Shown here: one piece after another, positions 5,184-31,187 of the stretch | Position numbering within the stretch: the first letter of the stretch is position 1 | Layout: each line of letters opens with the position of its first letter | Source of the DNA: a bacterium | GTDB lineage: Bacteria > UBA9089 > CG2-30-40-21 > SBAY01 | DNA: 32,027 bases | Assembly: GCA_030018635.1 (NCBI GenBank) | Contig: JASEHU010000001.1 | Location: forward strand, 1-32,027 | Reading direction: 5' to 3' | Notes under the pieces: model-generated | The model's input: only the letters and a program-made list of their open reading frames with translations | What the model was told of the DNA's origin: nothing | The model's database searches: none | Translations under genes and position numbers: made by a program

Positions 5184-7280
5184 TTATCCCTTTTGATAAA
5201 ACCAATAATGTGCCGAGAAACAAGTATAATGATGCCTTAATTCTCGGTATATCTCAAACCTCACCTTAGTTTTGTTTGAGGTTATATGGCTTCCGGCAAC
5301 ATTATAAACCGTCTCGGTCCAGTTATCCTCTGCATTTCGATGTGTCCAGACACCAAGTAACTTATCATTGATATAAACCTCTAACGGGGTAAAGGTATTG
5401 GTTCTCTTGATTATCCTCAAATCCTTTCCCGGCTCAGTCTCAATTACCATCCGTTCTCCAGCGGTAATCATTCTGCCGGCATCAATGACAATTTTATCCG
5501 GTGCCTCCAGACAAGGTAGTTTAATCGCCTGGTCCTGATAATTCATCCCATAATACATCCCCGGCTCTGATTCCCAAAATTTATATTTATGCCTTAACTC
5601 ATCCTCCACATCGGCCACATCAACCCTATCAACTAATTTATATTCGGCTAATTGTTGTAAAATATCCGGAGATTGAACCGCATCCCCTGAATGAGCCAAT
5701 TGCCAATCCACTTTATAGACTACCATCGGTGCCCCACTGCCGGCAATTGTCGGCTGAATCAATTTGAATTGAGCGACCTCATCCCCTAACATCCCCAGCC
5801 TATCAAAGACAAACCAATTAGGATAAATGATAAAATACTGGGGATAATGTTTGGCGTCTAAATTCTCAAGATATTCATAAACACTCCCGGCACCATTTAC
5901 CCATGACCGGGCCATGCCCTTAGTGCCCAGACCAAGCAAGTCAATGACATACCTATTGCCAAAATATTTTAATGCCCCCAGGTCATTTAAGGCAATAACC
6001 GCATCTTCCGGGATATTTTTATCTATCCATTCACCCAAGGTTATTTGCTGAAAATAAATATCTTTGCAGTTTTTCCCGTAGGCAACACCAAAATAGATGG
6101 TACTCATCAAGGTAAAACTTAATAAGAAGACGACTAATCCATAAAAGACATATTTGGACCCACCAACTACCTTGCCCATTAAATCACTAAAATAATAAAC
6201 CCCTAAAAGTGTAAAAATAAGAAACAGGGGATAGTAGGGGATAAGATACCGATGCCAATGCCATTTAAAGGGAAGGGCGACGGCGACCGCTAATGTCCCT
6301 GTAAAAAAACAGGCTAAACTGAGCATCCCAAATTTTGACCTTTCCTTAAGGATTAAAAAAAGACCACCCAACAAGAAAAAGATTAAAGAAAACGGGGCAA
6401 AATAGACACTAACCTGTCTTCCTTCATTTGTCTCCATTAAGGTTGAAAACTCACCATTAAAGCCACCAAAAATATCCTTTAAAATATAAATATAATATTT
6501 ACCCCCGGTAGCCAACATGTCCAATAAATCAACATTTGGTTTGGTCAGGACAGACTTGGCCGTCATCGTGTTAGCACTCAGGGTGCCATTAAATAAATAA
6601 TTTACCCCTATCTGCCCAATACCTAATCCAATTGGAATGAGGAAATAATAACTCTTTATCCCTTTTAACAAAAAGATGCCACCAAAGATAATTACGGATA
6701 GGACAAATCCTTCAGGTCGGGCTAAGGTCATCAATGAGGCAGACCAGATAGTCCGTCTGTATCGCTGTTCGTTATCATCTAACTCGATAAGGAGTGATAA
6801 CATTGTCGCCAGAATTGAGGTAGTAAATAATCCAGCATCCATACCACTTAAATGAACCCATAAGGTTGGTCCATTGAAAAGAAATAAAAGACTCATTAAA
6901 ACCCCAGCCTGATGATTAATTAACCTCTTCCCAATATTATACATCAACCAACCAGAAATGACTAAAAAGATTACCCCCAGGCTAAAGGTATAATAAAGTA
7001 TGGCTGTTTTACCCAGCCCGATTAAAAATCCAGGGATTAAGAAAAAGAGATAAATCAGACTGGTCGTTCCGGTTGTCGGAGGGTCACCTGTATTATATTG
7101 CCAGGGATGTCCATGGATAAACTGCCAGGTATATTGAAGAAAGATAAAGGTATCATCCAATGGGGCAGATAAATGTCCACTGGTATAATAAAACATTGTG
7201 CCTAAGTAAAAAATGGAAATGCTCACCGCCACAATTAAAATCCAAATTACCGGATAATAAATTTCTTTATATTTAAACAT
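5184..7280 (-). CDS. Polytopic membrane protein, GT-C-like N-terminal domain plus soluble C-terminal domain (paralog 1)
   Basis: 698-aa ORF with RBS AAGGAGGA. It has at least 10 hydrophobic helices. An early loop motif LDDTFIFLQY...GHPWQYNTGDPPTTG and a later RPEG motif recall GT-C glycosyl/arabinofuranosyl-transferase-like families. The last ~170 aa are hydrophilic. It is clearly paralogous to 7443-9554. The ORF call is secure; the function is tentative. Confidence 0.6.
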   Translation of the reverse strand: MFKYKEIYYPVIWILIVAVSISIFYLGTMFYYTSGHLSAPLDDTFIFLQYTWQFIHGHPWQYNTGDPPTTGTTSLIYLFFLIPGFLIGLGKTAILYYTFSLGVIFLVISGWLMYNIGKRLINHQAGVLMSLLFLFNGPTLWVHLSGMDAGLFTTSILATMLSLLIELDDNEQRYRRTIWSASLMTLARPEGFVLSVIIFGGIFLLKGIKSYYFLIPIGLGIGQIGVNYLFNGTLSANTMTAKSVLTKPNVDLLDMLATGGKYYIYILKDIFGGFNGEFSTLMETNEGRQVSVYFAPFSLIFFLLGGLFLILKERSKFGMLSLACFFTGTLAVAVALPFKWHWHRYLIPYYPLFLIFTLLGVYYFSDLMGKVVGGSKYVFYGLVVFLLSFTLMSTIYFGVAYGKNCKDIYFQQITLGEWIDKNIPEDAVIALNDLGALKYFGNRYVIDLLGLGTKGMARSWVNGAGSVYEYLENLDAKHYPQYFIIYPNWFVFDRLGMLGDEVAQFKLIQPTIAGSGAPMVVYKVDWQLAHSGDAVQSPDILQQLAEYKLVDRVDVADVEDELRHKYKFWESEPGMYYGMNYQDQAIKLPCLEAPDKIVIDAGRMITAGERMVIETEPGKDLRIIKRTNTFTPLEVYINDKLLGVWTHRNAEDNWTETVYNVAGSHITSNKTKVRFEIYRELRHHYTCFSAHYWFYQKG

Positions 7281-7310
7281 TCTTTTAAGTTAATCCTCCT
7301 TCTACTGGAG

Positions 7311-7427
7311 TTTCGTGAATTTATCTATAGTAGAATCACGAAATCACGAAAGGACGAAGGCACGAAATAGTTTTTAAATTAACTATCTATAAGTTTTCGT
7401 ACTTTCTATCTTTCGTGCTTTCGTGAT
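7311..7427. repeat. Intergenic hairpin with 8-nt cacgaa-type tandem arms
   Basis: Left arm atcacgaaatcacgaaaggacgaaggcacgaaatag (7335-7370) faces right arm ctataagttttcgtactttctatctttcgtgctttcgtgat (7387-7427). It lies between the two paralogous membrane-protein genes. Confidence 0.8.
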
Positions 7428-7442
7428 ATTATGCCATGCCAT

Positions 7443-9554
7443 TTATTTCTGGAAAAACCAATAATAACCCACTGAATAGGTATCTTGCTGTTTATCCCTG
7501 ACCTCAATATGTACCTTTGTCGAGTTTGATGTTACCCATTGGCCGGGGATAGTAACCAAAGACTCTGACCAGGTATTGCCGGGATTTGTTTCATCAATCC
7601 ACTTTCGGCAATATTTCCCGTTTATCAGCACATCCAACTTTAATGCCCCTGTTGTACGCATGACTATTTTCATTTCCTGCCCGGGCTGTGTTTTTACCAC
7701 CATATCCTCTCCACCCGAAAGGCTGCGGCCACCATCCATAATTTGTCTATCCAGACAAGGAAACGTATAAACATAAGTGGTGCTATTTAACCCTGGTTCT
7801 GCCTCCCAAAATCTATACTTGTGTTCGGCCTCACTATCTAAATTAGCCACATCAATCTTATCCACCAATTTATAGCCAGATAGAGAGGTCATCGGTTCAT
7901 CGCCCTTATTGGATAGACTCCAGTCTGCTTGATAGACATTTATCGGTTCAATAGGACGCACCCCCACTACCCTGGCTGAATAAAGCTCTGTTTTCAATAA
8001 TCCTGAACGAGTCAAATCTAAACGGTCAAGGACAAAACAGGCCGGATAAAGTTTTTTCTCCTCAAGCCATTCAAATATACTCCCCACACCATTTTGATAT
8101 GCCTTAGCTAACCCCTTAGTCCCCACCCCGCATAAATCAATAAAATTTCTATTCTCATAATACCTTAATGTATTTATCCCATTCATGGCTATGGTGACAT
8201 CAGCCGGGATATTTTCTCTTATCCATTTCACCAATCCCATCTTTTGATGATAATTATCCTTGCAAATCTTACCATAGGCAACGACAAAAAACGAGGTACT
8301 AAATAGTGAAAAAACGATGAAAAAAGAAGATAGTCCGTAAAAGGTTTGTTTTAAGGATATGGTCGTAACCATATTGGTTATCATGAGAGAAAAATGATAA
8401 ATACCCACAACCACGCCAAGGAGGAAGAGTGGATAATAGGGAATGAGTGTCATATTCCAGGAATAATCCGTGGGGAAGGTAATGGCCACCAGACCAATCC
8501 CCATAAAAAACCAGATAACCATCAGAAGATTAATGCCTAATCTCCTGGCATAGATCTCCTTAACGGCTAAAGGTAGTGAGCCGAATAAAAAGAAGAGAAA
8601 GGCAAACGGGGCAAAATAGGTGGCCGTCTGTCCGGCATCAGGACTTATCATCTCTGTGTAGGCACCGTTAAAGCCTCCAAATATCTCCTTTAAAAGATAG
8701 GCATAAAACTTAATCGACTTAGCTAAAATCTCCAGTAAAGGCATATTGGGGGAAAATAATGGGGATTTAGATTGCAGGAAGGTAGAAAAGAGACTGCCTA
8801 TTAGAATCAAGTTTAAGAAGACACAGCTAATTCCAATAATCGCAGGGATAAAAATGAGGATACTCTTTAATTTCGCCGCCCCTTGATTAAGGAGTAGGTT
8901 GATGATAAGGACAACGACCAACAAGATGGAAAGCACCGCCCCTTCTGGATGAGTCATGGCTAAGAGTGAACCTAAAATAACCGTCTTTTTGTAATCTCCA
9001 TCCTGCTCTCGCAAGAAGAAATAAAGGGTGGCTAAAATTACCGTACTAAAAAGCCCAATTTCGGTCCCACTTAAATATCCCCAGCTAATTGGTCCATTGA
9101 GAAGAAAAAGGAGACCGGCAATTATCCCTAACTCCCGACCAAAGAAACCCTCGGCTATCCGCAAGATTAACCAACCAGATAAAAAGAAAAATATCATCCC
9201 CAGGAGAAAGGCGTAACAAATCATTCCGTTGCCGGTTAGTCCAATGAAAAATCCCGGGGCCAAAATGATAGTGTAAAGAAGACTTCTAACACCAGTTGTA
9301 GGGGTATCTCCGAAGTTGTATTGAAAGGGATGTCCTGCGGATAATTGTTTAGCGTAATGAAAATATGAAAAGGAGTCATCCACTGGTAAGAAGAAATATC
9401 CGCCACTATAAAAGAGCGTAGAAATTACATACAAAATGGATATCCCCAGCACAAGGCCGATAAGGCTATAATTATATTTAGCCTCAACCCCTATTTTTTT
9501 TGCTTGAAGGATTTTTTCCCGTTTTTCTGATTTTTTCTTTTTTATCTTAGCCAT
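7443..9554 (-). CDS. Polytopic membrane protein, GT-C-like N-terminal domain plus soluble C-terminal domain (paralog 2)
   Basis: 703-aa ORF. It shares VDDSFSYFHY...GHPFQYNFGDTPTTG, HPEG, YFAPF, IPYYPLFL, YKLVDKIDVA and a YWFFQK C-terminus with the 698-aa neighbour. Its start overlaps the parA stop by 8 nt. Confidence 0.6.
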   Translation of the reverse strand: MAKIKKKKSEKREKILQAKKIGVEAKYNYSLIGLVLGISILYVISTLFYSGGYFFLPVDDSFSYFHYAKQLSAGHPFQYNFGDTPTTGVRSLLYTIILAPGFFIGLTGNGMICYAFLLGMIFFFLSGWLILRIAEGFFGRELGIIAGLLFLLNGPISWGYLSGTEIGLFSTVILATLYFFLREQDGDYKKTVILGSLLAMTHPEGAVLSILLVVVLIINLLLNQGAAKLKSILIFIPAIIGISCVFLNLILIGSLFSTFLQSKSPLFSPNMPLLEILAKSIKFYAYLLKEIFGGFNGAYTEMISPDAGQTATYFAPFAFLFFLFGSLPLAVKEIYARRLGINLLMVIWFFMGIGLVAITFPTDYSWNMTLIPYYPLFLLGVVVGIYHFSLMITNMVTTISLKQTFYGLSSFFIVFSLFSTSFFVVAYGKICKDNYHQKMGLVKWIRENIPADVTIAMNGINTLRYYENRNFIDLCGVGTKGLAKAYQNGVGSIFEWLEEKKLYPACFVLDRLDLTRSGLLKTELYSARVVGVRPIEPINVYQADWSLSNKGDEPMTSLSGYKLVDKIDVANLDSEAEHKYRFWEAEPGLNSTTYVYTFPCLDRQIMDGGRSLSGGEDMVVKTQPGQEMKIVMRTTGALKLDVLINGKYCRKWIDETNPGNTWSESLVTIPGQWVTSNSTKVHIEVRDKQQDTYSVGYYWFFQK

Positions 9555-11128: not shown

Positions 11129-11187
11129 CTTATTTTATTAGAGTGTAATACATTTTGGCTTATATGTCAAGAAAAAAATCCACCAAT

Positions 11188-11231
11188 GTCAATTAAGAAT
11201 TAAAAGTGGACACTTTTAATTCTTAATTGAC
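11188..11231. promoter_or_regulatory. Perfect 21+2+21 bp palindrome in the divergent rsmG/rpmF control region (candidate operator)
   Basis: gtcaattaagaattaaaagtg-ga-cacttttaattcttaattgac with no mismatch. Each arm ends in a TTGACA hexamer that reads outward on its own strand. Confidence 0.5.
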
Positions 11232-11247
11232 ATCCTAAAAAATCTTC

Positions 11248-12578: not shown

Positions 12579-12813
12579 GTGAGCAAGGAGCAAGGTTTTT
12601 CGTAAGCGTTCAGGTAAAATGTAGAATGTAGAATATTGAATGTAGAATGTAAAAGGAAGGCAGGAAAAATAGTAAAACTTCATAATTCTACATTCTACAT
12701 TCTACATTCAATATTCTACATTCAAGGTGAATTTCCGTTTGCACAGGTCGAGGTTTTTGCTTCAATTCTTCACCTTGATCCTCGTTCCTTGTTCCTTCCA
12801 CTGAGGAACAAGG
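12579..12813. repeat. Nested long hairpin complex between plsX and fabH (atgtaga heptad arms inside gagcaagg arms)
   Basis: Inner arms are aatgtagaatgtagaatattgaatgtagaatgt (12618-12650) and attctacattctacattctacattcaatattctacatt (12685-12722). Outer arms are gtgagcaaggagcaagg (12579-12595) and ccttgatcctcgttccttgttcc (about 12773-12797). A separate perfect 9-bp hairpin, ccttgttcc/ggaacaagg, lies at 12787-12813. Confidence 0.8.
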
Positions 12814-15240: not shown

Positions 15241-15861
15241 ATGAACAATAACCAAATCAATAAAATTACAGAAGATATTAATTTTATCAAAAGCATTTAT
15301 AAGAAATTAATAACAATGCTTCCTTCTTTCGATATTACTGATAAAGATATATTGCCTTACGGACTGAAACCGCATACGAGGTCCGTTAGTTGGCTTGTTG
15401 AACAGGTTATTACCCAACAAACGAAATTTAGAGCAAAACAACTGGGTCTTGATGATGTCAGTTTTGATATGCCTGATACATGTTTGCATGACTGTGAAAT
15501 TAAAATCGATGAAAAAATTTACTATATTAATGTAAAAATTCATAATGTTGCCATGAAAGAAAACAAAAATGACATAGCAGCAGTTGAAAAACTTTACATG
15601 CAATATGCTGCTAATTCCTCCTATGATTTAATTTATACTTGTTTTGGGATAGGTTTTAAGGATATAAATATTAAATTTGATCCTGATTATTTATGTTTAT
15701 TTTCTCCACAATTTTTGCCAATTTATGTGAATCCCAGAAATGATAAAATTCAAGCATATTATCATCATGACCCAGTATATAGAACAAGAGAAGAATTTTT
15801 AAAACTGCTTCGTGATAGTTCAAAAAGCATAATATTGAAACCACAAAAGGAGAAAGATTGA
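15241..15861 (+). CDS. Putative type II restriction endonuclease (partner of the downstream methyltransferase)
   Basis: 206-aa ORF, very AT-rich, with a 4-nt overlap onto the methyltransferase gene. The segment MPDTCLHDCEIK may be a PD...ExK-like motif, but the spacing is short. I recognise no family, so the call rests mainly on context. Confidence 0.45.
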   Translation: MNNNQINKITEDINFIKSIYKKLITMLPSFDITDKDILPYGLKPHTRSVSWLVEQVITQQTKFRAKQLGLDDVSFDMPDTCLHDCEIKIDEKIYYINVKIHNVAMKENKNDIAAVEKLYMQYAANSSYDLIYTCFGIGFKDINIKFDPDYLCLFSPQFLPIYVNPRNDKIQAYYHHDPVYRTREEFLKLLRDSSKSIILKPQKEKD

Positions 15862-16727
15862 ATATGGAAGAGATTTTAAATAAAATCTTTAATGAGGATG
15901 TGCTGAAGGGAATATCTAAAATTCCTGATAATTTTGTGGATTTAGTTGTGGCTGACCCTCCATATTGTTTAGGAAAGGATTACGGAAATAATTCTGATAA
16001 ATTAAAACCAGAGGATTATATAAAATGGAGTAAAAAATGGATAGATGCAGTAATTCCAAAAATAAAAAATACTGGTAGTTTTTATATATTTTTAACATGG
16101 CAACATAGTCCAGAGATTTTTAGTTATATAAAAACAAAACTTATTATGATAAATGAAATTATATGGGATAGAAAAGTACCGAGTATGGGTGGAAGCACCA
16201 GAAAATTTTCCTCTGTTCATGATAATATTGGATTTTTTGTAAAAACAAAGGATTATTATTTTGATATTGACGCAGTAAGAATTCCTTATGATGCAGAAAC
16301 TAAAAAAGCAAGGACTCGTTCAATTTTTGTGGGTAAAAAATGGCTTGAAATTGGATACAACCCAAAAGATTTATGGAGTGTAACAAGGATTCACGCAGAA
16401 GATCCAGAAAGAGAAACCCACCCCACGCAAAAGCCACTGGAGATTGTAGAAAGAATTATTAACGCAAGTTGTCCAGAACAAGGAGTTGTTGTCGATCCAT
16501 TTATGGGTAGTGGAACAACAGCAATTGCTTGCATTAAACTCAAAAGAAATTACATTGGTTTTGAAATAAATTCTAATTACTGTGAAATGATAGAAGAAAG
16601 AATTAATAAAGCAACAAACCCACTCTTTCTTTTTATCATACCAGAAAGAAATAATGGTGGAAATGAACAACAGGATTTGTTTGATTATGAAGAACTTGTA
16701 ACAAAATATTTAAGTGAGGTGAAATAA
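15858..16727 (+). CDS. Beta-class N6-adenine/N4-cytosine DNA methyltransferase (N6_N4_Mtase type)
   Basis: 289-aa ORF. Motif IV VVADPPY is near the N-terminus and SAM motif I DPFMGSGTTAIAC is near the C-terminus, which is the beta-class order. HPTQKPLEIVERII is also present. DPPY favours m6A. In-frame ATG 15864, behind AAGGAG, is an alternative start. Confidence 0.88.
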   Translation: MNMEEILNKIFNEDVLKGISKIPDNFVDLVVADPPYCLGKDYGNNSDKLKPEDYIKWSKKWIDAVIPKIKNTGSFYIFLTWQHSPEIFSYIKTKLIMINEIIWDRKVPSMGGSTRKFSSVHDNIGFFVKTKDYYFDIDAVRIPYDAETKKARTRSIFVGKKWLEIGYNPKDLWSVTRIHAEDPERETHPTQKPLEIVERIINASCPEQGVVVDPFMGSGTTAIACIKLKRNYIGFEINSNYCEMIEERINKATNPLFLFIIPERNNGGNEQQDLFDYEELVTKYLSEVK

Positions 16728-17493: not shown

Positions 17494-17648
17494 GGAATGG
17501 TTCACTTTAATTTGAAAGATTGCGGTTAAAAGATGGAGTTGGAAATTAGAAATTAGAAATTAGGTTTACAAGTCTCTCCCCAATTTCTAATTTCCAATTT
17601 CCAATTTCTAAAAGAAATCATAGTAAAAACGATAAAATGAACCGTCCC
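17494..17648. repeat. Complete palindromic element: TIR-like ends, 45-nt module and gaaatta heptad hairpin
   Basis: Left end ggaatggttcac (17494-17505) matches right end atgaaccgtccc (17637-17648) as an inverted pair. The core arms are ggaaattagaaattagaaattagg and ccccaatttctaatttccaatttccaatttct. The left flank is the reverse complement of the module found at 21905 and 24841. Confidence 0.8.
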
Positions 17649-19325: not shown

Positions 19326-20060
19326 ATGAATGAGACTCGAATTCAACAACTTAACGAAATGCAATCTGCCCTTAGTCTGGAATTTAAAAACATTGATTTG
19401 TTAAATCAGTCCTTGACCCATACATCTTATGCCTACGAATTAAGTAGTGACCGTAATAATGGCGGTATATTGCAGAATGAAAGAATGGAATTTCTTGGCG
19501 ATGTAGTTTTAGGTCTTATCGTCAGTGAGTATATTTACCAGAAATATCCTGATTATATGGAAGGGGATTTAGCTAAGATTCGGGCTAAGGTAGTTAGCCG
19601 ACCGATATTGGCCAAGCGGGCTAAACATTTAGAACTGGGTAAGTATCTACTTCTGGGTAAAGGCGAAGAGATAACAGAAGGAAGACACAGGCATTCTATT
19701 TTAGCCGATACTATGGAAGCCCTAATTGGTGCAATTTATTTAGATTCCGGCTTAGAAAAATCCCGCTATTTTATTTTAGCCCAATTTGAAGAAGAAATCG
19801 AAAAAATCACTGATAATGTTCATGTGCAGGATTATAAAACCGATTTTCAGGAATGGACCCAAAAGAAATTTAAAACCCTTCCTTTTTATAAGGTGATTAA
19901 TAGAGAGGGGCCTGACCATGAGCGAATTTTCGAGATAGCAGTTATGGTCAAAGGGGAAACATATGGCATAGGAAAGGGCGGAAGTAAAAAGGAGGCAGAA
20001 CAAAGAGCGGCTTACTTCGCCTTGCAACATGCAAAGGAAAGAGTGAAGAGTGAAAAGTGA
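19326..20060 (+). CDS. rnc: Ribonuclease III
   Basis: 244-aa ORF with the RNase III signature NERMEFLGDVVLG and a C-terminal dsRNA-binding domain (GPDHERIFEI...GSKKEAEQRAA). The last codons are encoded by the gagtgaa repeat. Confidence 0.95.
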   Translation: MNETRIQQLNEMQSALSLEFKNIDLLNQSLTHTSYAYELSSDRNNGGILQNERMEFLGDVVLGLIVSEYIYQKYPDYMEGDLAKIRAKVVSRPILAKRAKHLELGKYLLLGKGEEITEGRHRHSILADTMEALIGAIYLDSGLEKSRYFILAQFEEEIEKITDNVHVQDYKTDFQEWTQKKFKTLPFYKVINREGPDHERIFEIAVMVKGETYGIGKGGSKKEAEQRAAYFALQHAKERVKSEK

Positions 20061-20125
20061 AGAGTGAAGAGTGAAAAACTAAAAACTAATAATTTTCCAC
20101 TATTCACTATTCACTATTCACTTTT
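20037..20125. repeat. Hairpin with gagtgaa / cactatt heptad arms that overlaps the rnc 3' end
   Basis: Left arm is gagtgaagagtgaaaagtgaagagtgaagagtgaaaa. Right arm is ccactattcactattcactattcactttt. There is one periodic mismatch per heptad. Confidence 0.8.
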
Positions 20126-22464: not shown

Positions 22465-22500
22465 ATTTTACTCCTTTGATTGCACAGGAAATTGTATTTA

Positions 22501-22581
22501 CCACGAAGGCACAAAGGCACGAAGAATTCTTTTGAATCTTCCATAAAATAATCTTTTCTTTGTGTCTTCGTGTCTTTGTGG
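22501..22581. repeat. Hairpin with cacgaagg/cacaaagg 8-nt arms
   Basis: ccacgaaggcacaaaggcacgaag faces ctttgtgtcttcgtgtctttgtgg. Confidence 0.8.
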
Positions 22582-22583
22582 TA

Positions 22584-22675
22584 GTAACCGCTCAGTGAAC
22601 GGTGGAAAGATGAAGTTGAGAGGATGAGAAGGTAAGAGGATAAGATAATCTTTCCCCCGACAACTGAGCGATTAC
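22584..22675. repeat. Palindromic element with gtaaccgctcag...TIR-like ends; pyrimidine arm largely missing
   Basis: Left end gtaaccgctcagtgaacggtgg faces right end cccccgacaactgagcgattac. The interior is a purine-rich repeat (gatgaagttgagaggatgagaaggtaagaggataag) with only ggaaagat/atctttcc pairing. Confidence 0.7.
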
Positions 22676-22683
22676 CACATGTT

Positions 22684-22831
22684 GTAACCGCTCAATAATT
22701 GGTGTAAAAAGTTGAGATTAGGTGGAGATAAAGTTGAGATTAGGTGGAGATTGGTAAAAAAAACAATAAATCTCTACCTGATCTCCACCCATCTCTACCA
22801 ATCTCTACCCCACCGTTAACTGAGCAGTTAC
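22684..22831. repeat. Palindromic element with gtaaccgctca...TIR-like ends and 22-nt tandem arms
   Basis: Left end gtaaccgctcaataattggtg faces right end caccgttaactgagcagttac. The arms are (gttgagattaggtggagat)x2 and atctccacccatctctaccaatctctacc. Confidence 0.8.
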
Positions 22832-22967: not shown

Positions 22968-23657
22968 TTAGAAATGGAATCTTGGTCCAAATCTAATCAG
23001 AAACCCACTCAGGTCTATCTCAGATGGGTCTCCTACCTTCTCACCTGCCCATTTCAAATCATCAATCTTAGCACAAAGATAGGTAATATCACCACCGAGA
23101 GTGAGTATTTTAGCGATTTTATATCCTCCTTCGATAAATAATTGGTAGCCAACGGTATCCCCTTCCATCCAGTAAAACTTCTGGGGGTCTTTACTGGTTT
23201 TATTAACCGAGGCTAGTTCAGCACATACTCCAAACAACCCTAACCCACCACCTACGGCTAAATCCCATTTATCACTCGGTAATTTTTCTTTGGGAATTTT
23301 GTAGGAGACAAGTATTCCATGGTAGCCACCGTAAAGACAAGCCACATTAGCTGCAGTCCCGACTGTCTTTTCTTTTGCACCATAAATCCCACCGCCATTG
23401 TAACCAATCTGCCAGTTAGGATTAATTTGCCAGCGAAGTGTCCCACCATTAAAGCCCAAATCCTTAATACCATCAAGTCCTAATTCTTTCTTGATGTAGT
23501 CATTGAACCTGGACATATCGGGATAGTAAATACCTATCTGTGGTCCTCCACCAAAGCCACCAACCGGACTTTCGTCTTCCTCCATATTCCCGGCTTTTAC
23601 CGATGTTGTCACCATAAGAAGCACTCCAACCACTATTAACGCTAATACCTTCCACAT
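22968..23657 (-). CDS. Small outer-membrane beta-barrel protein
   Basis: 229-aa ORF with a signal peptide (MWKVLALIVVGVLLMVTTSVKA). The body is Gly/Tyr-rich with alternating hydrophobicity. The C-terminus RFGPRFHF ends in Phe, a typical OMP sorting signal. Confidence 0.7.
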   Translation of the reverse strand: MWKVLALIVVGVLLMVTTSVKAGNMEEDESPVGGFGGGPQIGIYYPDMSRFNDYIKKELGLDGIKDLGFNGGTLRWQINPNWQIGYNGGGIYGAKEKTVGTAANVACLYGGYHGILVSYKIPKEKLPSDKWDLAVGGGLGLFGVCAELASVNKTSKDPQKFYWMEGDTVGYQLFIEGGYKIAKILTLGGDITYLCAKIDDLKWAGEKVGDPSEIDLSGFLIRFGPRFHF

Positions 23658-23674
23658 TTTTTATCACCTCCTTT

Positions 23675-23728
23675 GAGATTTTGGATTTTAGATTTTGGAT
23701 TGAGAAAAGATTTCAATCCGCAATCCCC
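23675..23728. repeat. Hairpin with gattttg heptad arm
   Basis: gagattttggattttagattttggattgag faces caatccgcaatcccc. It lies directly upstream of the OMP gene RBS. Confidence 0.65.
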
Positions 23729-23887
23729 AACTATATTTATTAAGTAAGCAAATCTTATGCCAGGACAGGTTGAATCTTTTATATCCATAGTATTTATGAG
23801 GAATCAGGTGATTTTAATAAGTTTTAAACATGGGATTAGCTGTCAGTTTTTTATGACAGAAATAGGTAGGAAGTGTCATTTTTATAA

Positions 23888-24009
23888 GTGAATAGTGAAT
23901 AGTGAATAGTGAATAGTGAATAGGAAATAGGAAATAGCTAATATTTCCTCTTCATTCTTCACTATTCACTATTCACTTTTCACTATTAACTATTCACTTT
24001 TCACTTTTC
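23888..24009. repeat. Hairpin with gtgaata / ggaaata heptad arms that overlaps the 3' end of the DUF3108-like gene
   Basis: Left arm is (gtgaata)x5 followed by (ggaaata)x2. Right arm is tttcctcttcattcttcactattcactattcacttttcactattaactattcacttttcactttt. Confidence 0.8.
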
Positions 24010-24728
24010 TTACACAAATAGGCGCTCAATAATCCTGCCTCAGTTTTTACCGCAATCTTAACCGGAGTATGTGTTTTATCGGTAGCAAACCAAATAACAA
24101 TATCTGTCTCTGCACCAACTTGTTTGGCCATTAGGGCTGTAAAATTCCCATAAGGTGTGGTCATCTTTTCTTCTTTAACTATCGCTACCTTAACCTGTTC
24201 TGTTCCAGACCTGGTTAATAGATTAAAATTATATAAATTCCCAACCTTCAACTCTTGATTTCTCAAATAATAGATTAAAGAAAGCGAATCTAAGGTATTG
24301 GCGGTAATATTTATCTCTTTAGTTTCTTGATTTTGTTTATTGAAGATGGTCGCCTTTTTATTGGTTTGGTTCACTGAAAATTCATAGTGTCTACGATATT
24401 TTCCTCTATCAATATCCGTTATTGTCCGCACTGGAAGTAGATTTGAGGTTCTTACCCAACTATCTATTTGTTCTGACAGGTAATAAAATTTTGAAAAAAA
24501 AGGATTGGTTTTAATCTCTGATTTGAGGTGATAGGTTTCCTCTGTATTTATTATCTCTTTCCCGAGCACCTGGTCTATTTGAGTTCCTATTTTAAACCCT
24601 AATAGTCGAACCTCGTAAGTAAATTTTTCACCTACACAAACAAAATCTTCCTGGGCAAAAACAATAGGAGTAATTAAAATAAATATGCTTATCAAAAATA
24701 TTCTTATACCGGAATGATTTATTTTCAT
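23994..24728 (-). CDS. DUF3108-like secreted/periplasmic protein
   Basis: 244-aa ORF with a signal peptide. GEKFTYEVRLLGFKIG near the N-terminus, DSLSLIYYLRNQELKVG in the middle and a VIWFATDKTHTPVKI C-terminal motif match my recollection of DUF3108. Confidence 0.6.
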   Translation of the reverse strand: MKINHSGIRIFLISIFILITPIVFAQEDFVCVGEKFTYEVRLLGFKIGTQIDQVLGKEIINTEETYHLKSEIKTNPFFSKFYYLSEQIDSWVRTSNLLPVRTITDIDRGKYRRHYEFSVNQTNKKATIFNKQNQETKEINITANTLDSLSLIYYLRNQELKVGNLYNFNLLTRSGTEQVKVAIVKEEKMTTPYGNFTALMAKQVGAETDIVIWFATDKTHTPVKIAVKTEAGLLSAYLCKKSEK

Positions 24729-24754
24729 CGTCTCTCCTGTGATTTTAAAATACT

Positions 24755-24884
24755 GAAATTAGAAATTGGAAATTAGAAAACAGGACTTCTCGTTTCCTCT
24801 CTCTCCCCACAGTTTCTAATTTCCAATTTCTAATTTCAACTCCATCTTTTACCCGCAATCTTTCACACTAAAGTGAACCATCCC
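24755..24884. repeat. gaaatta heptad hairpin plus right-hand 45-nt module
   Basis: Left arm gaaattagaaattggaaattagaaaa faces right arm ccccacagtttctaatttccaatttctaatttc. The module tccatcttttacccgcaatctttcacactaaagtgaaccatccc follows. Confidence 0.8.
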
Positions 24885-24892
24885 AGAACCTT

Positions 24893-26257
24893 TTATTCTT
24901 TATTTTCAACTTTCTTTACACCATATATAATAAGATATACTAAAACGCCAACCATTATAGTCAAAACAGCACTAAGTATTGCCTTAGAGGACAAAATTGG
25001 TTTCTTTCCCCTGGTATCTTTTGTATTCACCTGTTGTTTCCCAATATTCCAACGATTACCACCGACAGGTGAAGATTCAGCTAACACAGAAGAAACATCA
25101 TACCTTGGAACCTCAAACCCTTCTCCCCCATAGCAAACTTTTAGAGACTTTTTACCCCTGTGAAAAAATAGTATTTCATGGATTGGTCCCTTGCCTGCGG
25201 CTGAATCAATCTCAATCGGTGTATTGTCTTGATTGATTATTTTCATACGATATCGTAAATATCTACATATAAGTGGCAGATTAATCTCTATTTTTTCTTT
25301 GTGAAATTGCCCCGCACTTATATTGAATATTTCGCTTGAGACAACTCCGGACCAAATTGGGTTTGCAGTAGTATCATCTGTACCTTCAATGATGACTTTT
25401 CGTTTAAAATTTTTGCTTTTTACCTTAAGTGCTATTTTTTTTAAAGGCTGCCTATTGGAGCTTATATAAATTTCGCTTGTTTTTTTATCCTTATCAATAG
25501 AGGTTTCTATTATTCTCAGGGGGTATTTTAGTGTTTCTTCTCTCCCATAGATGAGATTCTCTTTCTTTCCAGAAAAGATAATATTATCAATATGTAAGGC
25601 ACCTTCGTACTGGATAAATGCCTCATATTTTTCTTGAATTTGCTCCTTGCTGTATTTAGTAAATATTTGTGAAAATGATGATTTTAATGGTTGCGAGACA
25701 TTATCTATCGTTATTTTATAATAGGTAAAAGGTACCTTCTCAAAGGAAATACTCATATTACGAAGATCAATAAATTTTGAATAATCAAAGATAGGTTGAT
25801 TCTCTACAATAAGATGCCATTGTTCTTTATCATTACTACCATATAGAGAAACACCCTTTTCAAAATTTTTATTTGGTGTTTGAATAATCATATCAGAAGG
25901 AACCAATTTCTTGTTCTTATTCTCCAGGATAATGTTTATACGGTTATCCGCCAATTCCTCAAAAGTCAAAGTAGTTAAGGGAACTGGATAGGTACTTATT
26001 ACTTTCTCATTGACCTTTCGGGTTCTAACTACATATGGTATAGTATTATTGTTTTCGTCAAATATCCTTAGATTAGCAAACGAATTATCTGTATTTTTGT
26101 AAATATCGGCATCCAGGGTGATAACACCAATTTCATCTTTGATTAGCGACGGCACCTCTGCTTGTTTATAATATAGGAGCTCTTCATCTGCTATACAGAT
26201 AGCAACCCTTACACCAACCACAACAAATAAAATTAATATCCATTTTATTACCTTCAT
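24893..26257 (-). CDS. DUF3999-like protein (signal peptide, large extracytoplasmic domain, C-terminal TM anchor)
   Basis: 454-aa ORF with N-terminal signal MKVIKWILILFVVVGVRVAIC and C-terminal helix AILSAVLTIMVGVLVYLIIYGV. The size and its pairing with a DUF2339-like gene (4-nt overlap) fit DUF3999 as I recall it. The family assignment is unverified. Confidence 0.5.
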   Translation of the reverse strand: MKVIKWILILFVVVGVRVAICIADEELLYYKQAEVPSLIKDEIGVITLDADIYKNTDNSFANLRIFDENNNTIPYVVRTRKVNEKVISTYPVPLTTLTFEELADNRINIILENKNKKLVPSDMIIQTPNKNFEKGVSLYGSNDKEQWHLIVENQPIFDYSKFIDLRNMSISFEKVPFTYYKITIDNVSQPLKSSFSQIFTKYSKEQIQEKYEAFIQYEGALHIDNIIFSGKKENLIYGREETLKYPLRIIETSIDKDKKTSEIYISSNRQPLKKIALKVKSKNFKRKVIIEGTDDTTANPIWSGVVSSEIFNISAGQFHKEKIEINLPLICRYLRYRMKIINQDNTPIEIDSAAGKGPIHEILFFHRGKKSLKVCYGGEGFEVPRYDVSSVLAESSPVGGNRWNIGKQQVNTKDTRGKKPILSSKAILSAVLTIMVGVLVYLIIYGVKKVENKE

Positions 26258-28716
26258 TTTGCATCCTCTTTTATTTCAAACTTTTTATTAGCCTTGATAT
26301 AGGCAAAAGCCCCTCCTATAAGCAATATGCCAAGTATCATGAAGGCTATTACACGATGAACTATTTCCATATCGGACATATCGATGAAGAACACCTTTCC
26401 CACAACAACAAGAAATAATATTAACCCACTGTAACGCCAGGCTTTACTTAATTTTCTAATACCAATGATTAAATATGCTATGGCAAAAATGGCCCATGCC
26501 ACTGATATAGAACCCTCTTGAAACTCAAGGATGTACCAATGAAAAAATGTATTTGTTTCTAACGAAACATAAACAAACAACAACACCGTACTCGCAATTG
26601 TAAATACTCTACCGTAATTAATCGGATCATCCTTACCATGTGTGGCTTTCATAAGTGCCATTAAAAAAAGAAAGATAAACCCATAATCTAAAAAACGCAT
26701 CAGCATATTTATAGTTCCAATTTCATAAACATACACTGCGTGGATAAATCCCCAGGTATCAAAATCAAAGATAAATAGCTTGCCTAAAATAATTAACATT
26801 ATCACTATAGATACAAATAGAAAAATATTTTTCCTTTTACTGGTAAAGTTATATATCAGATAGACTCCTAACCCGTACCATAACATAGTGAGTATCGGCA
26901 TTTGTAAAGGTAAACAGTAATAAAACATCTGAAAAAGTTCAAAGTACATCACGAAAAAGAAAGAAACTACCCCACACCAAAACATTATTTCACGAAATAC
27001 CGATTTGGATATCAACAATTTAGTATTACTACTTTCATCTACAGCGAAGGCAGAAATCTGTTTAATCTTATGTTTATGCAAAACAAAACCTCCGAAGAAT
27101 GTAGCGATAACCATTCCAAGGGTCCAAATCCTATCAAAAAATACCTTCCAATACTCAATCATTGGAACATTATCCCAACTGTAATTGGCAAAATTCCCTG
27201 GCATGTCTAAAAAAGTAAATCTTCCCATAACCAAAAAGTATAAAATAGAAGATAGCGTAACAAGTAAATTGCTGTTCATCTTCAGACCCATCCAAAGGAA
27301 GAAGAATGCCTGTAGTGCCCAACAAATAGTAAGTGTTTCCTTTTCAGTAATTAAAGGAACTGCCCAAACCGTAAAAAATCCTGCAATACCTATTAGAACA
27401 ATCAGAAGATTGCGATCATTAAATCGTTTTTTAAGAAATACAAAAACATGTATTATATAAAAAATGCCTAATCCAACAGCCATTACTGCCGGCCATGGCC
27501 TGTCATGTGCCTGGATTATCAACCAATAAGAAGTCATAGCGTATAAGAAAGAATTAAACGACAGATGTGTTATCTCCAGTGCTGTTGATTTTTTGCATTT
27601 TATTAAGTTGTAATAGTAAACAATCACTGAATGCAGAATGAATAACAGAGAAAGAAAGGTTATTGTTGTTACAAAATCCCGAGCTGGCACATATATTGAA
27701 AGACCCTGGGAAAAAATCAACCAGGTAAAAACAAACCCTAAATAATTTAGCAGACGCCAATTCTTTACATGAGCAATACCAAAGATGCCGATACTAAGTA
27801 ATAACAGATAACTATACAGAACCATAAGCCCTGCCGCGGGTATTTTTAAAATAATAGGTGTCCAGAAACCGCCTATAATGCTGAAAATAGCTATCAGTTG
27901 TGAGTTTGCTCTCAAGGCTAATACCCCGGCTACAATAGTTACCAGAATCATTAAAATAAAAGATGCCGGCAGTGAAATCCTATAATACATCAGGCCAGCT
28001 GCATAAATACTAAAATAAAGAGCAGCCAATCCTCCTCCTATAAACCCTTGAGCAAGAATATGGTATTTTTTTTGTAAGTTCCTTATACCCACACCCAACA
28101 TTGTAATTCCGGCTAATACAGAAAGCGCAATCCGTCCATCCGGTCCTAATAGCCCCTGATCAATTGTCCATTTCAAGAAATAACCTATACAAACCACCAA
28201 AGCGATAATCCCTAACCGCATCAGCCATGTACTTGCAACCGCATACTCCATAGAAACATTCTTTGGTCTATAGTCTTCACCTACCAGTATCCAACTCCAA
28301 ATTCTCTTTAAGATATCCCCTACAGTCTCCTCAAACTTTGTTTTTTCTCTTGGTGCTCTCTCCCGGAGTTCTCTTACCTCCACTGGCGTCGTAGGCATTA
28401 CAACTTCCGGCTCTTCCTCAACAAAAAGAATTTCTTCAACCTCTTTTTCCTCCAATTCCAGTTCCGGTTCCAGTTCCGGTTCAACATGAGACTCTTCATA
28501 CTCCTTAACCTCTTGGGGAATATCTTTTTCAACTATTTTCCGTATTGAATGAATCTGCATATCCATACGAGCTATCGCGTTTGTAATTTCACATAGATCG
28601 AGATTTAATCCACTCTGCATTTTTTTTAAACGGCTATTTATTTTAAAAATACAAATAACACCAACAACAGGGATACAAATAACACCAATAACGATAATAA
28701 AAACTATTACTTCCAT
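26254..28716 (-). CDS. DUF2339-like polytopic membrane protein
   Basis: I place the start at ATG 28716, behind AAGGAG, rather than at the track's TTG 28749. It has an N-terminal TM helix, an acidic repeat EPELEPELELEEKEVEE and then about 20 helices. The first core segment WLMRLGIIALVVCIGYFLKWTIDQGLLGPDGRIAL resembles the DUF2339 consensus as I recall it. Confidence 0.6.
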   Translation of the reverse strand: MEVIVFIIVIGVICIPVVGVICIFKINSRLKKMQSGLNLDLCEITNAIARMDMQIHSIRKIVEKDIPQEVKEYEESHVEPELEPELELEEKEVEEILFVEEEPEVVMPTTPVEVRELRERAPREKTKFEETVGDILKRIWSWILVGEDYRPKNVSMEYAVASTWLMRLGIIALVVCIGYFLKWTIDQGLLGPDGRIALSVLAGITMLGVGIRNLQKKYHILAQGFIGGGLAALYFSIYAAGLMYYRISLPASFILMILVTIVAGVLALRANSQLIAIFSIIGGFWTPIILKIPAAGLMVLYSYLLLLSIGIFGIAHVKNWRLLNYLGFVFTWLIFSQGLSIYVPARDFVTTITFLSLLFILHSVIVYYYNLIKCKKSTALEITHLSFNSFLYAMTSYWLIIQAHDRPWPAVMAVGLGIFYIIHVFVFLKKRFNDRNLLIVLIGIAGFFTVWAVPLITEKETLTICWALQAFFFLWMGLKMNSNLLVTLSSILYFLVMGRFTFLDMPGNFANYSWDNVPMIEYWKVFFDRIWTLGMVIATFFGGFVLHKHKIKQISAFAVDESSNTKLLISKSVFREIMFWCGVVSFFFVMYFELFQMFYYCLPLQMPILTMLWYGLGVYLIYNFTSKRKNIFLFVSIVIMLIILGKLFIFDFDTWGFIHAVYVYEIGTINMLMRFLDYGFIFLFLMALMKATHGKDDPINYGRVFTIASTVLLFVYVSLETNTFFHWYILEFQEGSISVAWAIFAIAYLIIGIRKLSKAWRYSGLILFLVVVGKVFFIDMSDMEIVHRVIAFMILGILLIGGAFAYIKANKKFEIKEDAK

Positions 28717-28885
28717 AACAACTCCTTTTTTATAGAATGGTAATGTCAAAAGTTTTACTGCAATTTTTTTCTAAGTCGCGATGATTAAAGAGGTTATTTA
28801 TCCTTTAGCCTCCTCCCCCCATTTGACCATAAGTTTACCGTCTTACCCACTCCAAGATATATCTAACCTTCTCCTCTAAAGGGTA

Positions 28886-29003
28886 AAATACCTTTCAGAG
28901 GACATACCTTGTATGTGGTCTGAAGGGCGCTCAGGTCGCTCTTCAGCGTTGCCCTATCCTCCCTTCAGAGGACAAAGATAGACTAATACATACCTTGGTG
29001 TGG
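28886..29003 (-). other. GC-enriched structured/direct-repeat element in the leader of the DUF2339-like gene (unclassified)
   Basis: A 9-bp stem tctgaaggg (28919-28927) pairs with cccttcaga (28961-28969). Alternative inner stems are agggc/gccct and cgct-cttc-agcg. The direct repeat ccYttcagaggaca...taccttgKtgtgg occurs at 28891-28918 and 28961-29003. Confidence 0.3.
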
Positions 29004-29036
29004 AAAAAAGCGATAAACTTTTCTTTCATATTTCTT

Positions 29037-30164
29037 TCATACTATTTTTGACACTACCTTATTATAACATTTATGGTATAATTTTTCAAGAGAAATTTTG
29101 GAAGGGCTCTTTTTCCCCAATACATAAACTTTATGAGCAATCTTTTTATTTTTAAATAAGAATTCCCATCTTAATCTTATTTTTAAATAGATGCAGACTA
29201 AATATGCAATAATAGGAATTCTCAGGAGTAACATTTTATTCTTATCTCTTGTAACTTGCTGCAAGTTTAATCTTGATTTCAATGAATTAATATATCCATA
29301 ATTTATTATTTCATACCCATTCTCTTCTATAATATCAATGAATTTATTTAGTTCTATCCCATCCTCATTGGATGAACTGTCTTTATTTAATGCAATGAAT
29401 AAATTACCCTCCCCATACCTCTTTTTAACCTCCTTTTGTATATGTTCTACGGTTATCTTTTCATAAATATCTGTTAAAGAAGTTGTCTCAATTTTATACT
29501 CATCTTCAAGTTTTAATTCGGTAATCTGTATAACGTTTTCATGCTCCTTTAATTTTTTGATAAGGAGGAGTCCTATCAGGTGAACTACATCTTCTAACTT
29601 CTTATCGATCTTAATTCCATAAAATTTAGCTAACCTATATACATTTATACCTGTAGATTCCAGTGAAGATCTTCTAATCTTAGGAAGCTTACACCCACTC
29701 TTATCTACTGCTCCACATTTGGTTAGATGGAGCAAGCATGGCCCAGCAATGAAACCTTGAACTTCATATCCATCCTTTTTAGCTATTCCTTCCAGTTTTA
29801 ATACCATTCTATGAAGTTTTCTTACATATTTTCGGACAAAGATTAACTGTAAGAAGAAAGCTATAAACGGTATCTTCATTAGACGAGGAGGAATGTCTTT
29901 TATACGGAGAACAAGCATTATTCCTAGTTCATAATCACTAATAATCTTTTTTGTCTTTTCTATTTTCCAGGAATAAGGAGGGCATGAATAGCAGTTATTA
30001 AAAGAATCACAGAGCTTACACGCATTTTTCACTCGCTGCTCTACCTGGATATCTTTTGTTCTTATAACTATTCCTTTACAAAATCCTTCTCTTTCTATTA
30101 TATCTATAAGTTCTGAAATATAGTCAAAAATATCATTCTTATATTTTAACTTGAATTGTTTCAT
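29037..30164 (-). CDS. DUF2284-like Cys-rich metal-binding protein with a degenerate internal duplication
   Basis: 375-aa AT-rich ORF. CKLCDSFNNCYSCPP and AGPCLLHLTKCGAVDKSGCKLPKIRRSSLESTGINVY resemble DUF2284. The second half repeats ELIDIIEREGF as KFIDIIEENGY, and KIPFIAFFLQLIFVRKY as RIPIIAYLVCIYLKIRL, but lacks the cysteines. Confidence 0.5.
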   Translation of the reverse strand: MKQFKLKYKNDIFDYISELIDIIEREGFCKGIVIRTKDIQVEQRVKNACKLCDSFNNCYSCPPYSWKIEKTKKIISDYELGIMLVLRIKDIPPRLMKIPFIAFFLQLIFVRKYVRKLHRMVLKLEGIAKKDGYEVQGFIAGPCLLHLTKCGAVDKSGCKLPKIRRSSLESTGINVYRLAKFYGIKIDKKLEDVVHLIGLLLIKKLKEHENVIQITELKLEDEYKIETTSLTDIYEKITVEHIQKEVKKRYGEGNLFIALNKDSSSNEDGIELNKFIDIIEENGYEIINYGYINSLKSRLNLQQVTRDKNKMLLLRIPIIAYLVCIYLKIRLRWEFLFKNKKIAHKVYVLGKKSPSKISLEKLYHKCYNKVVSKIV

Positions 30165-30201
30165 TCTATTATAACCTTAAGGCAGGATAAAGAAGGATTC
30201 T

Positions 30202-30462
30202 TTACACTTCGATAATTATTTCTTCAACCTTTATTCCTACATGTCTACTACCAGGATTAGTTATATGGGCTAACACTTTATCATCAGGCTTAAGTGTCGT
30301 TACATTTCTTGGTTCGCCATTGGCACCATGGACTCTAACATGCCAATCATCCTGTACAATAGAGTTAATAACTACATCATTATATTTTGCTTTGATTAAT
30401 AGTAGTGGTCTGACTTCTATCTTTATTCTTCCAAAGGTATACCTGGGAATATACTTATTGAC
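30202..30462 (-). pseudogene. Start-less 86-codon open frame (orphan fragment)
   Basis: The frame is open from 30462 to the TAA at 30204-30202. It translates VNKYIPRYTFGRIKIEVRPLLLIKAKYNDVVINSIVQDDWHVRVHGANGEPRNVTTLKPDDKVLAHITNPGSRHVGIKVEEIIIEV. There is no ATG/GTG/TTG until near the end, and it overlaps the ligase stop in another frame. Confidence 0.2.
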
Positions 30463-31187
30463 TTAGTTTTAATTATTCTGATAACCTCATGTGGGACAAA
30501 TCTATCCAAAAGAACAAGTGTAGCGCCTGTTTTAATAGAAGTTAACATACAATGTCCCAATCCATAAGAGTGAAATAGTGGTATAACCCCCAAAATATTA
30601 TCTTTATCTGTAATTCTTTCTGTACTTGCAACATTTTCTGCTTCATTAATAAGATTCCGATGCGTGCGTATTATACCTTTGGGTTTACCCGTTGAACCAG
30701 AAGTATAAAGATAAAGGGCTTTATCTTCGGTTTTAATATTTCTCTTTATATCCTGATAAGATTTTTGCTCTAGTAGTTTTTCAAAAGATAATATGTTATC
30801 TTCACGCTTTAGTCCACTTACAATAAAATTTTTAAGGTTACTTAATTTATTTACCTTATCTACAAACTCATTAGCTGTAATTAAGGTTTTTATATCACAA
30901 TGCTCGGAGATAAATTTCAATTCTTCTGGTTTGTATCTTATGTCTAACGGTATAGAAATTGCCCCGATTTTAGCTATAGCAAAGAAGCTAATGATAAACT
31001 CAAGGGAATTATTGAATAATAGACCAACTCTATCTCCATAACTTACATTAAGTGCACTTAAATTAGATGCGAAATTATTAATTTTACTTTGTAATTCGAA
31101 ATATGTCAAATCTTCATCTTTAAATGATATAGCAATTTTATTTGGGTTATCAGTAACTGTTTTATCTAACATTTCTTCTAATGTCAT
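30423..31187 (-). pseudogene. AMP-dependent synthetase/ligase, N-terminal half only (truncated)
   Basis: 254-aa ORF with the AMP-binding core motif LYTSGSTGKPKGI and the downstream PLFHSYGL. It stops after FPGIPLEE, about where full-length enzymes of ~500 aa continue. No C-terminal subdomain is encoded downstream. Confidence 0.7.

Follow-up and report, generated by a model that had tools for sequence, protein, structure and literature searches.

Do four consecutive minus-strand genes for envelope proteins make up one system that spans the cell envelope, or is only part of the run a functional unit? The genes in question lie in a 32,027-nucleotide stretch of bacterial DNA (GenBank assembly GCA_030018635.1, contig JASEHU010000001.1, positions 1 to 32,027 of the forward strand), hereafter the window, and a first-pass annotation made from the sequence alone had read them as a trans-envelope system in which no member had an established function. 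The four consecutive minus-strand open reading frames (ORFs) are present at the positions given in that annotation. Based on the data presented below, it is quite likely that the functional unit is a pair of two genes, arc3A and arc3B, and that the other two, a DUF3108 gene and a gene for a putative beta-barrel (the barrel gene), are independent envelope genes. The four genes are as follows.

26254-28716, minus strand: arc3A homologue (DUF2339), 820 amino acids (aa), Pfam PF10101 at E = 3.8e-75, predicted polytopic inner-membrane protein
24893-26257, minus strand: arc3B homologue (DUF3999), 454 aa, Pfam PF13163 at 39.4 bits, C-terminal transmembrane anchor
23994-24728, minus strand: DUF3108 gene, 244 aa, secreted protein, Pfam PF11306 at E = 4e-29; a neighbour, not part of the conserved pair
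22968-23657, minus strand: barrel gene, 229 aa, probable small outer-membrane beta-barrel; a neighbour, not part of the conserved pair

Families in the window were assigned with Pfam at gathering scores, a search that the first-pass annotation had proposed, and its assignments to DUF2339, DUF3999 and DUF3108 proved right for the three genes concerned; no NCBIfam model matches any of the four proteins. The product of the first gene matches PF10101 with 254.4 bits (gathering score 33.6) over profile positions 3-656 of 659, and thus shows the full-length, above-gathering match that Ting et al. (PMC8926400) used as their criterion. The product of the second gene, encoded beside it, matches PF13163 above a gathering score of 30 (E = 5.5e-10); a look-up of its exact sequence among public assemblies gave no record. 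The closest homologues of the first protein, at 56-71% identity, come from metagenome-assembled genomes of Candidatus Omnitrophota. By their sequences, the two genes are an Omnitrophota copy of a pair that has already been described as Arc3A and Arc3B, which are PA5114 and PA5113 of Pseudomonas aeruginosa and belong to antagonism resistance cluster 3 (Ting et al., eLife 2022, PMC8926400).

For these two families, the claim that the function of no member has been established no longer holds, since genetic, lipidomic and co-immunoprecipitation evidence exists for Arc3A and Arc3B. In P. aeruginosa, no cellular factor is more critical than Arc3A for survival when B. thailandensis attacks with its type VI phospholipase Tle3. 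Arc3A stops the build-up of lysophosphatidylethanolamine (LPE) and monolysocardiolipin, it co-immunoprecipitates with Arc3B, and its deletion is complemented by four distant heterologous homologues from other proteobacteria (PMC8926400). The authors suggested that its dense transmembrane segments sequester lysophospholipids or interfere with lipases (PMC8926400), and a CRISPR interference study has since confirmed Arc3 protection against the lipases TseL and Tle1 (Nat Commun 2025, PMC12663445). No mechanistic Arc3 paper later than these was found in the literature searched. Arc3 is a widespread lipase-defence factor without a solved structure, whose mechanism its authors call unknown. The two genes in the window can be named arc3A and arc3B, and their neighbours should not be annotated as parts of the system.

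What decides between a pair and a larger system is the neighbourhood of Arc3 genes elsewhere. We compared 84 loci that carry an Arc3A relative, from Omnitrophota, Fibrobacterota-related bacteria, Edwardsbacteria, Verrucomicrobiota, Kiritimatiellia, Lentisphaerota and Planctomycetota, and also from Cloacimonadota, Thiomargarita and Thermodesulfobacteriota. The arc3B gene lies directly downstream of arc3A on the same strand in 77 of the 84 loci, two of which (L049 and L055) are natural fusions that run A then B, and of the seven loci that lack it there, two are contig ends. The adjacency of DUF2339 and DUF3999 genes given in the first-pass annotation is thus correct; it had already been published that these genes adjoin across phyla, are at times fused and often lie near aas (PMC8926400). 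In contrast, a DUF3108 homologue was found in 0/84 loci by phmmer and with the family profile at E<=10, a narrow profile that very divergent copies more than two genes from arc3B may escape, and a homologue of the barrel gene in 0/84 loci by phmmer and with an 18-sequence family profile. At the two gene positions next after arc3B (77 proteins at the first, 70 at the second), Pfam found no family in more than three loci, and neither DUF3108 nor an outer-membrane protein was among the families that recur there. The first-pass annotation had itself named co-occurrence across genomes as the point on which its four-gene system would fall, and only the A-B pair is conserved. We propose that the DUF3108 and barrel genes were placed beside the pair by a lineage-specific rearrangement.

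Upstream of arc3A, the recurring families in this census were alpha/beta-hydrolases and Aas/LplT-type acyltransferases, and Aas/LplT-type genes were present within +/-10 kb in 14 of the 84 loci. The hydrolases (Abhydrolase_1, Hydrolase_4 or Peptidase_S9 matches) stand immediately upstream of arc3A in 8/73 loci, and a MarR regulator does so in three. Considered alongside estA, which follows arc3 in P. aeruginosa, the upstream hydrolases hint at a recurrent esterase or lysophospholipase partner. One edge-cut gene 3' of arc3B (locus L002) was considered as a DUF3108 gene and rejected, as it encodes another protein.

The organization of the cluster in this genome is as follows. The start of arc3B overlaps the stop of arc3A by 4 nucleotides (nt) in the sequence ATGA, confirming an overlap that the first-pass annotation had pointed out, and we propose that the two genes are translationally coupled through it. 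A physical association of Arc3A and Arc3B in this organism would be supported, indirectly, by this coupling and by the natural fusions. The gaps along the cluster are -4, 164, 336 and 503 nt, and the DUF3108 and barrel genes each have a ribosome-binding site of their own. The hairpins that had been noticed near 23888 and 24755 are real and very stable, and they lie in the two gaps that follow arc3B and the DUF3108 gene.

24754-24838: perfect 26-bp hairpin of heptamer repeats followed by a U-rich tract, in the gap between arc3B and the DUF3108 gene (-39.4 kcal/mol, z-score -5.6)
23886-24009: long hairpin of GTGAATA heptamer repeats, in the gap between the DUF3108 gene and the barrel gene (-57.2 kcal/mol, z-score -11.1)

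Comparison with the P. aeruginosa proteins reveals the same plan with several departures. Both have the PF10101 and PF13163 families in the same gene order. In both, the first protein is polytopic and very large, and the second begins with a hydrophobic stretch, continues with a domain in the periplasm and has a transmembrane helix at its C-terminus. A-B fusions among relatives and Aas/LplT genes nearby in some genomes are further common features. PA5114 is reported to have 35 transmembrane segments, whereas about 23 helices are predicted in the 820 aa of Arc3A here, which unlike PA5114 has an N-terminal transmembrane helix and an acidic disordered linker. P. aeruginosa Arc3B is a predicted outer-membrane-anchored lipoprotein, whereas in the Omnitrophota Arc3B a lipobox is absent and the cleavage site is of the A-x-A type, for signal peptidase I. 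Moreover, there is no estA-like esterase downstream in the window and no Gac/Rsm, the latter being confined to gamma-proteobacteria. The LplT/Aas system (known from E. coli, and PA3267 in P. aeruginosa) deals with the same problem, lysophospholipids made by phospholipase A, but it has no sequence or fold relationship to Arc3A and is genetically additive with it in P. aeruginosa, where Arc3A makes no contribution to regenerating phosphatidylethanolamine from LPE.

To what extent the two proteins themselves suggest how they work was addressed with alignments and structure models. Although the arc3A ORF can be extended to a TTG at 28749, the ATG at 28716 is the preferred start, as a ribosome-binding site, AAGGAG, lies directly 5' of it. 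A hydropathy scan and an AlphaFold2 model (27-sequence alignment; predicted local distance difference test score (pLDDT) 75.9, predicted template modelling score (pTM) 0.58) both predict an N-terminal transmembrane helix, an acidic linker and then a polytopic body, with about 22 helices between residues 156 and 808 in addition to the N-terminal one. Within the linker lies the acidic tract of the DUF2339 protein that the first-pass annotation had singled out. The linker contains 30 D/E against 12 K/R, its residues 65-122 have a pLDDT <50 and are modelled as disordered, and it is poorly conserved in the homologue alignment. Arc3A has no relative among the solved structures of the PDB by sequence or profile, and Foldseek of the model against the PDB returned nothing significant; soluble helical-repeat proteins were considered as homologues and rejected (E>=0.027, template modelling score (TM-score) <0.2). 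The features of Arc3A discussed here and below are the following.

28312-28611, minus strand: acidic low-complexity linker of Arc3A, residues 36-135, containing EPELEPELELEE
27196-27345, minus strand: Arc3A repeat 1, residues 458-507, with R499 and D504 (hhalign probability 89-91.5%, E ~1e-6)
26755-26904, minus strand: Arc3A repeat 2, residues 605-654, with K646 and D651 (hhalign probability 91.5%, E 8.6e-7)
26371-26520, minus strand: Arc3A repeat 3, residues 733-782, with W741, G752, K774 and D779 (hhalign probability 89%, E 2.2e-6)

The repeats were sought by profile-profile comparison of segments of the Arc3A alignment with hhalign. Residues 462-559 align with 609-704 at a probability of 91.5% (E 8.6e-7), and residues 458-507 align with 733-782 at 89%; the same comparison gave no repeat signal for the N-terminal third of the protein against the middle and C-terminal thirds. 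The repeat unit is a two-helix hairpin of about 50 residues in which W at position 9, K or R at position 42 and D at position 47 stand in register in all three copies, with a G at position 20 in repeats 1 and 3. These residues are nearly invariant across 81 species-level homologues: R/K499 is kept in 80/81 and D/E504 in 81/81, K646 and D651 of repeat 2 in 80/81 each, and in repeat 3 W741 is kept in 81/81 and G752, K774 and D779 in 80/81 each. The C-terminus of Arc3A is Lys-rich and must be cytoplasmic, because the natural fusions run A then B, and counting helices from this end, helix parity would put each of the three charged pairs at the periplasmic end of its helix.

The tentative and rather unlikely proposal that we attach to these pairs is that the basic-x4-Asp motifs are functional sites of Arc3 that, helped by the jelly rolls of Arc3B, would capture phospholipase toxins or the head groups of lysophospholipids in the outer leaflet. 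Neither the Arc3A repeats nor the Arc3B fold was found described in the literature searched, and the triple in-register two-helix repeat of Arc3A, each copy with its near-invariant basic…Asp pair, may be new.

As the first-pass annotation had stated, Arc3B has the features of an exported and C-terminally anchored protein, with an N-terminal signal sequence and a C-terminal hydrophobic segment at residues 420-450 that the model renders as a transmembrane helix (424-451). The AlphaFold2 model (pLDDT 71.7) places beta-sandwich domains at residues 29-186 and 225-376. No solved structure in the PDB is related to Arc3B by sequence or profile search, whereas Foldseek of the model returned 41 PDB matches at E<=1e-3, to galactose-binding-like, CBM32, CBM22 and allantoicase-type domains. 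Jelly rolls of the CBM32/discoidin type (PDB 5zu5, 5k9h and 1o59) match single domains of the model with E-values down to 1.5e-5 and probabilities up to 1.0, but the identity is only 6-12%, and since the superposition covers no more than one domain at a time, TM-scores over the whole chain are low. The periplasmic part of Arc3B is thus predicted, from the model, to consist of two galactose-binding-like jelly rolls, possibly a new observation.

The N-terminus of Arc3B bears on where the protein is held. A lipobox fits in none of the nine aligned Omnitrophota homologues, four of which lack an N-terminal Cys altogether, and the alignment has a conserved cleavage site, A-x-A|[ND]E, which implies cleavage by signal peptidase I. 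Arc3B is accordingly predicted here to be a periplasmic protein tethered to the inner membrane, without the outer-membrane lipoprotein anchor predicted in Pseudomonas. An Arc3B with an ordinary signal peptide and no lipobox may also be a new observation; it would suggest that outer-membrane tethering is not general in the family and fits the published auxiliary role of Arc3B.

Taken together with the work in Pseudomonas, these features suggest the following scheme. Phospholipase A activity, whether from secreted or injected lipases of competitors or from endogenous turnover, would generate detergent-like lysophospholipids, and the Arc3 pair would keep these from accumulating, in parallel to and independently of re-acylation by LplT/Aas. 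Arc3A would sit in the inner membrane as a large polytopic protein; Arc3B would leave the cytoplasm by way of an ordinary signal peptide, be held at the inner membrane by its C-terminal helix and present its jelly rolls to the periplasm as an auxiliary module, probably docking on Arc3A. The charged pairs of Arc3A are candidate sites for zwitterionic lysophospholipid head groups, for Arc3B or for the lipase. We infer by homology that an orthologous Arc3A-Arc3B complex probably limits lysophospholipids here as it does in Pseudomonas. The triple repeat with its charged pairs and the jelly rolls of Arc3B are specific targets that could be mutated at little cost in the Pseudomonas model.

It is possible, although we consider it doubtful, that the role of the pair in this organism is a housekeeping one, in the homeostasis of membrane lipids, and not defence against the type VI lipases of competitors. 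The Arc3 family occurs in most phyla, Gram-positives included, and its authors call endogenous and environmental lysophospholipids ongoing threats (PMC8926400), while later work proposes a connection with lysophospholipids that arise through reactive oxygen species (PMC12663445). The pair also sits among core genes (the fab cluster, rnc and the par genes) and in no defence island, with no PADLOC matches in the window. However, in P. aeruginosa a change in the stability of LPE was not detected when antagonism was absent, and the two roles are compatible with each other and not separable from sequence.

A more remote alternative concerns the DUF3108 gene, whose usual surroundings proved informative. 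The protein carries a signal peptide and matches PF11306 with 102.4 bits (gathering score 26) over positions 1-207 of the 209 in the profile, in agreement with the secreted 244-aa protein described in the first-pass annotation. Its closest homologues (55-83% identity) all stand in another conserved neighbourhood (loci L005-L010), in which VanZ, a Phenol_MetA_deg outer-membrane protein, in some cases rpmB, and a metallophosphatase precede DUF3108, and rpsD/rpoA follow; no Arc3 genes were present in these neighbourhoods. The assembly SBAY01 carries homologues of both DUF3108 (83% identity) and arc3A (68%), on separate contigs, and arc3B is followed there by unrelated small ORFs. The family has been assigned a YmcC-like fold, represented by PDB 3FZX (PMC4364669), and the protein in the window resembles the DUF3108/YmcC-like proteins in its end-to-end PF11306 match and its signal peptide; sequence and profile searches of the PDB gave no match for it, with a narrow profile that did not reach 3FZX. 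DUF3108 is linked to DUF3567 in Burkholderiales and to VanZ, the outer-membrane protein and the metallophosphatase in the relatives of the window; it is not linked to Arc3.

Against this background, we find it improbable that DUF3108 was recruited to Arc3AB in a lineage-specific module of three genes, for instance as a lipid-handling partner in the periplasm or the outer membrane, with the barrel gene unrelated. The gene does lie 164 nt downstream on the common strand with a low GC content (33.5%, and 0.30 at third codon positions (GC3)) like that of arc3A and arc3B, and in a gonococcal mlaA mutant a DUF3108 protein became more abundant along with MlaC, which hints at a connection with lipid homeostasis in the envelope. 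However, the arrangement occurs in no other genome sampled, the closest included, the apparent orthologue (83% identity) normally follows a metallophosphatase gene, the DUF3108 genes of relatives have a similarly low GC content that matches their own neighbours there, and the perfect 26-bp hairpin with its U-rich tract separates arc3B from DUF3108.

Two side observations attach to the DUF3108 loci. The metallophosphatase of L005-L010 is 244-256 aa long, and its stop often overlaps or abuts the DUF3108 start, which suggests a real functional link between the two genes. SBAY01 (GCA_005239945.1, loci L009 and L012), which holds the closest relatives of both Arc3A and DUF3108 in the genome collection, is labelled 'Nitrospira sp. 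Bin_21_1', but the other close matches are all Omnitrophota, and the bin may be mislabelled or mixed.

The barrel protein is probably a small outer-membrane beta-barrel of a rare family. The beta-barrel claim of the first-pass annotation is supported by a signal peptide and by the terminal ...GPRFHF, but for the Pfam family OMP_b-brl (PF13505) the score is 19.9 bits, and 28.7 would be needed to pass gathering. The family profile weakly matches solved outer-membrane proteins (BamG at 4e-5, an outer-membrane protein at 1e-4 and Opa60 at 0.02), and the C-terminal beta-signal DLSG..[IV]R.GP.FHF is kept in 18 family members. The family is tiny, with 20 representative clusters at E<=1e-3 among 1.84 billion; a metagenome scan with the single protein gave no match, and a 5-sequence alignment retrieved three relative loci (L091-L093). 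These three relatives adjoin cobalamin, DUF4390 and two-component genes, with neither Arc3 nor DUF3108 nearby in any of the three loci. The family profile likewise gave no match in the loci of DUF3108 homologues. The relative in L092 lies between cobalamin-synthesis genes and a set of DUF4390, histidine-kinase and response-regulator genes, and a GGFGGGP motif is conserved in the family near the mature N-terminus.

As for the single trans-envelope system of all four genes, with DUF2339 in the inner membrane, DUF3999 and DUF3108 in the periplasm and the barrel in the outer membrane, the genes are indeed consecutive on a common strand, their predicted locations do cover three compartments, and hairpins of this type also occur within the fab cluster, so that those between the four genes are compatible with read-through transcription, but we consider such a system highly improbable given that neither DUF3108 nor the barrel gene accompanies any Arc3 locus of the census, that DUF3108 homologues of 55-83% identity are always in a different context, that the relatives of the tiny barrel family lie beside cobalamin and two-component genes, that the GC content of the barrel gene is 42.8% compared to 33-36% for the other three, that gaps of 164 and 336 nt, separate ribosome-binding sites and long hairpins divide the run, and that an Arc3B without a lipobox gives no sign of an outer-membrane anchor and so would not reach the outer membrane.

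Several points weigh against the two-gene unit and the scheme proposed for it, and they are best taken together. For the extent of the unit, these are the common strand, the short distance and the low GC content that DUF3108 shares with the pair, the narrowness of the DUF3108 profile, and the hairpins, which prove no termination because hairpins of the same type sit inside the fab cluster. For the scheme, the window holds no LplT/Aas gene and no acyltransferase or major facilitator superfamily domain, only a truncated AMP-binding ORF; the AlphaFold2 models of Arc3A and Arc3B have moderate confidence only (pTM 0.51-0.58), with a shallow alignment of nine sequences behind that of Arc3B; and the periplasmic placement of the charged pairs comes from helix counting.

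Hairpins similar to the two in the cluster lie in many intergenic gaps of the window, at 958-1046, 5102-5163, 7335-7427, 11186-11233, 12609-12731, 17539-17604, 20053-20125, 22500-22600 and 22700-22830, and some of them fall even between plsX and fabH and 3' of fabG. Their arms are tandem heptamers (GTGAATA, GAAATTA, GAATGTA, CACGAAA and others) with z-scores of -4 to -11, and the motif GAAATTAGAAATT recurs at three sites. Rfam at gathering thresholds has no match to the hairpins, and a scan for consensus terminators left the long AT-rich hairpins unflagged. From their occurrence even within the fab cluster, the hairpins are a genome-wide element, which may act as terminator, as RNA stabiliser or in the manner of the repetitive extragenic palindromic (REP) sequences.

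The AT-richness that had been noted for the first two genes is real, with a GC content of 35.6% for DUF2339 and 33.0% for DUF3999 compared to 38.1% for the window. Low values are also found for DUF3108 (33.5%), for a DUF2284 gene (30.0%) and for the AMP-binding fragment (29.7%), whereas the barrel gene has 42.8% and the core genes 38-45%. DUF3108, arc3B, arc3A, DUF2284 and the AMP-binding fragment form a low-GC block of about 7 kb (23994-31187, 30-36% GC, GC3 0.20-0.33) that is flanked by genes of 42-43% GC. Low GC as a sign of horizontal transfer was weakened by the comparison with other genomes: it is weak evidence for joint acquisition because DUF3108 is low in GC in its usual context too, and arc3A and arc3B lie slightly below the GC of their neighbours in another Omnitrophota genome.

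The truncated AMP-binding ORF (30423-31187, minus strand) lies two genes upstream of arc3A and encodes 254 aa that match Pfam positions 2-264 of 384, with a GC3 of 0.20. It was considered as a remnant of aas and set aside, its 26-27% identity to Aas-type domains being generic and uninformative.

The window otherwise holds core genes: uvrA, parB/parA/rsmG, plsX-fabH-fabD-fabG-fabF and rnc, and further genes for an acyl-CoA dehydrogenase, a CBS protein and RseC. The fatty-acid synthesis cluster is interrupted between fabD and fabG by a low-GC insert (15241-16727, plus strand, 29-31% GC) with a 206-aa ORF that matches nothing in Pfam or PADLOC and a gene for an N6/N4 DNA methylase; the insert is a probable cassette for restriction-modification or with an orphan methylase that has split the cluster. 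Between parB and parA (5184-9554, minus strand) stand two large ORFs of 698 and 703 aa, for which Pfam and PADLOC gave no match either. On an Omnitrophota-like contig (L004), two unannotated and much smaller ORFs likewise lie between parA and parB, directly upstream of arc3A.

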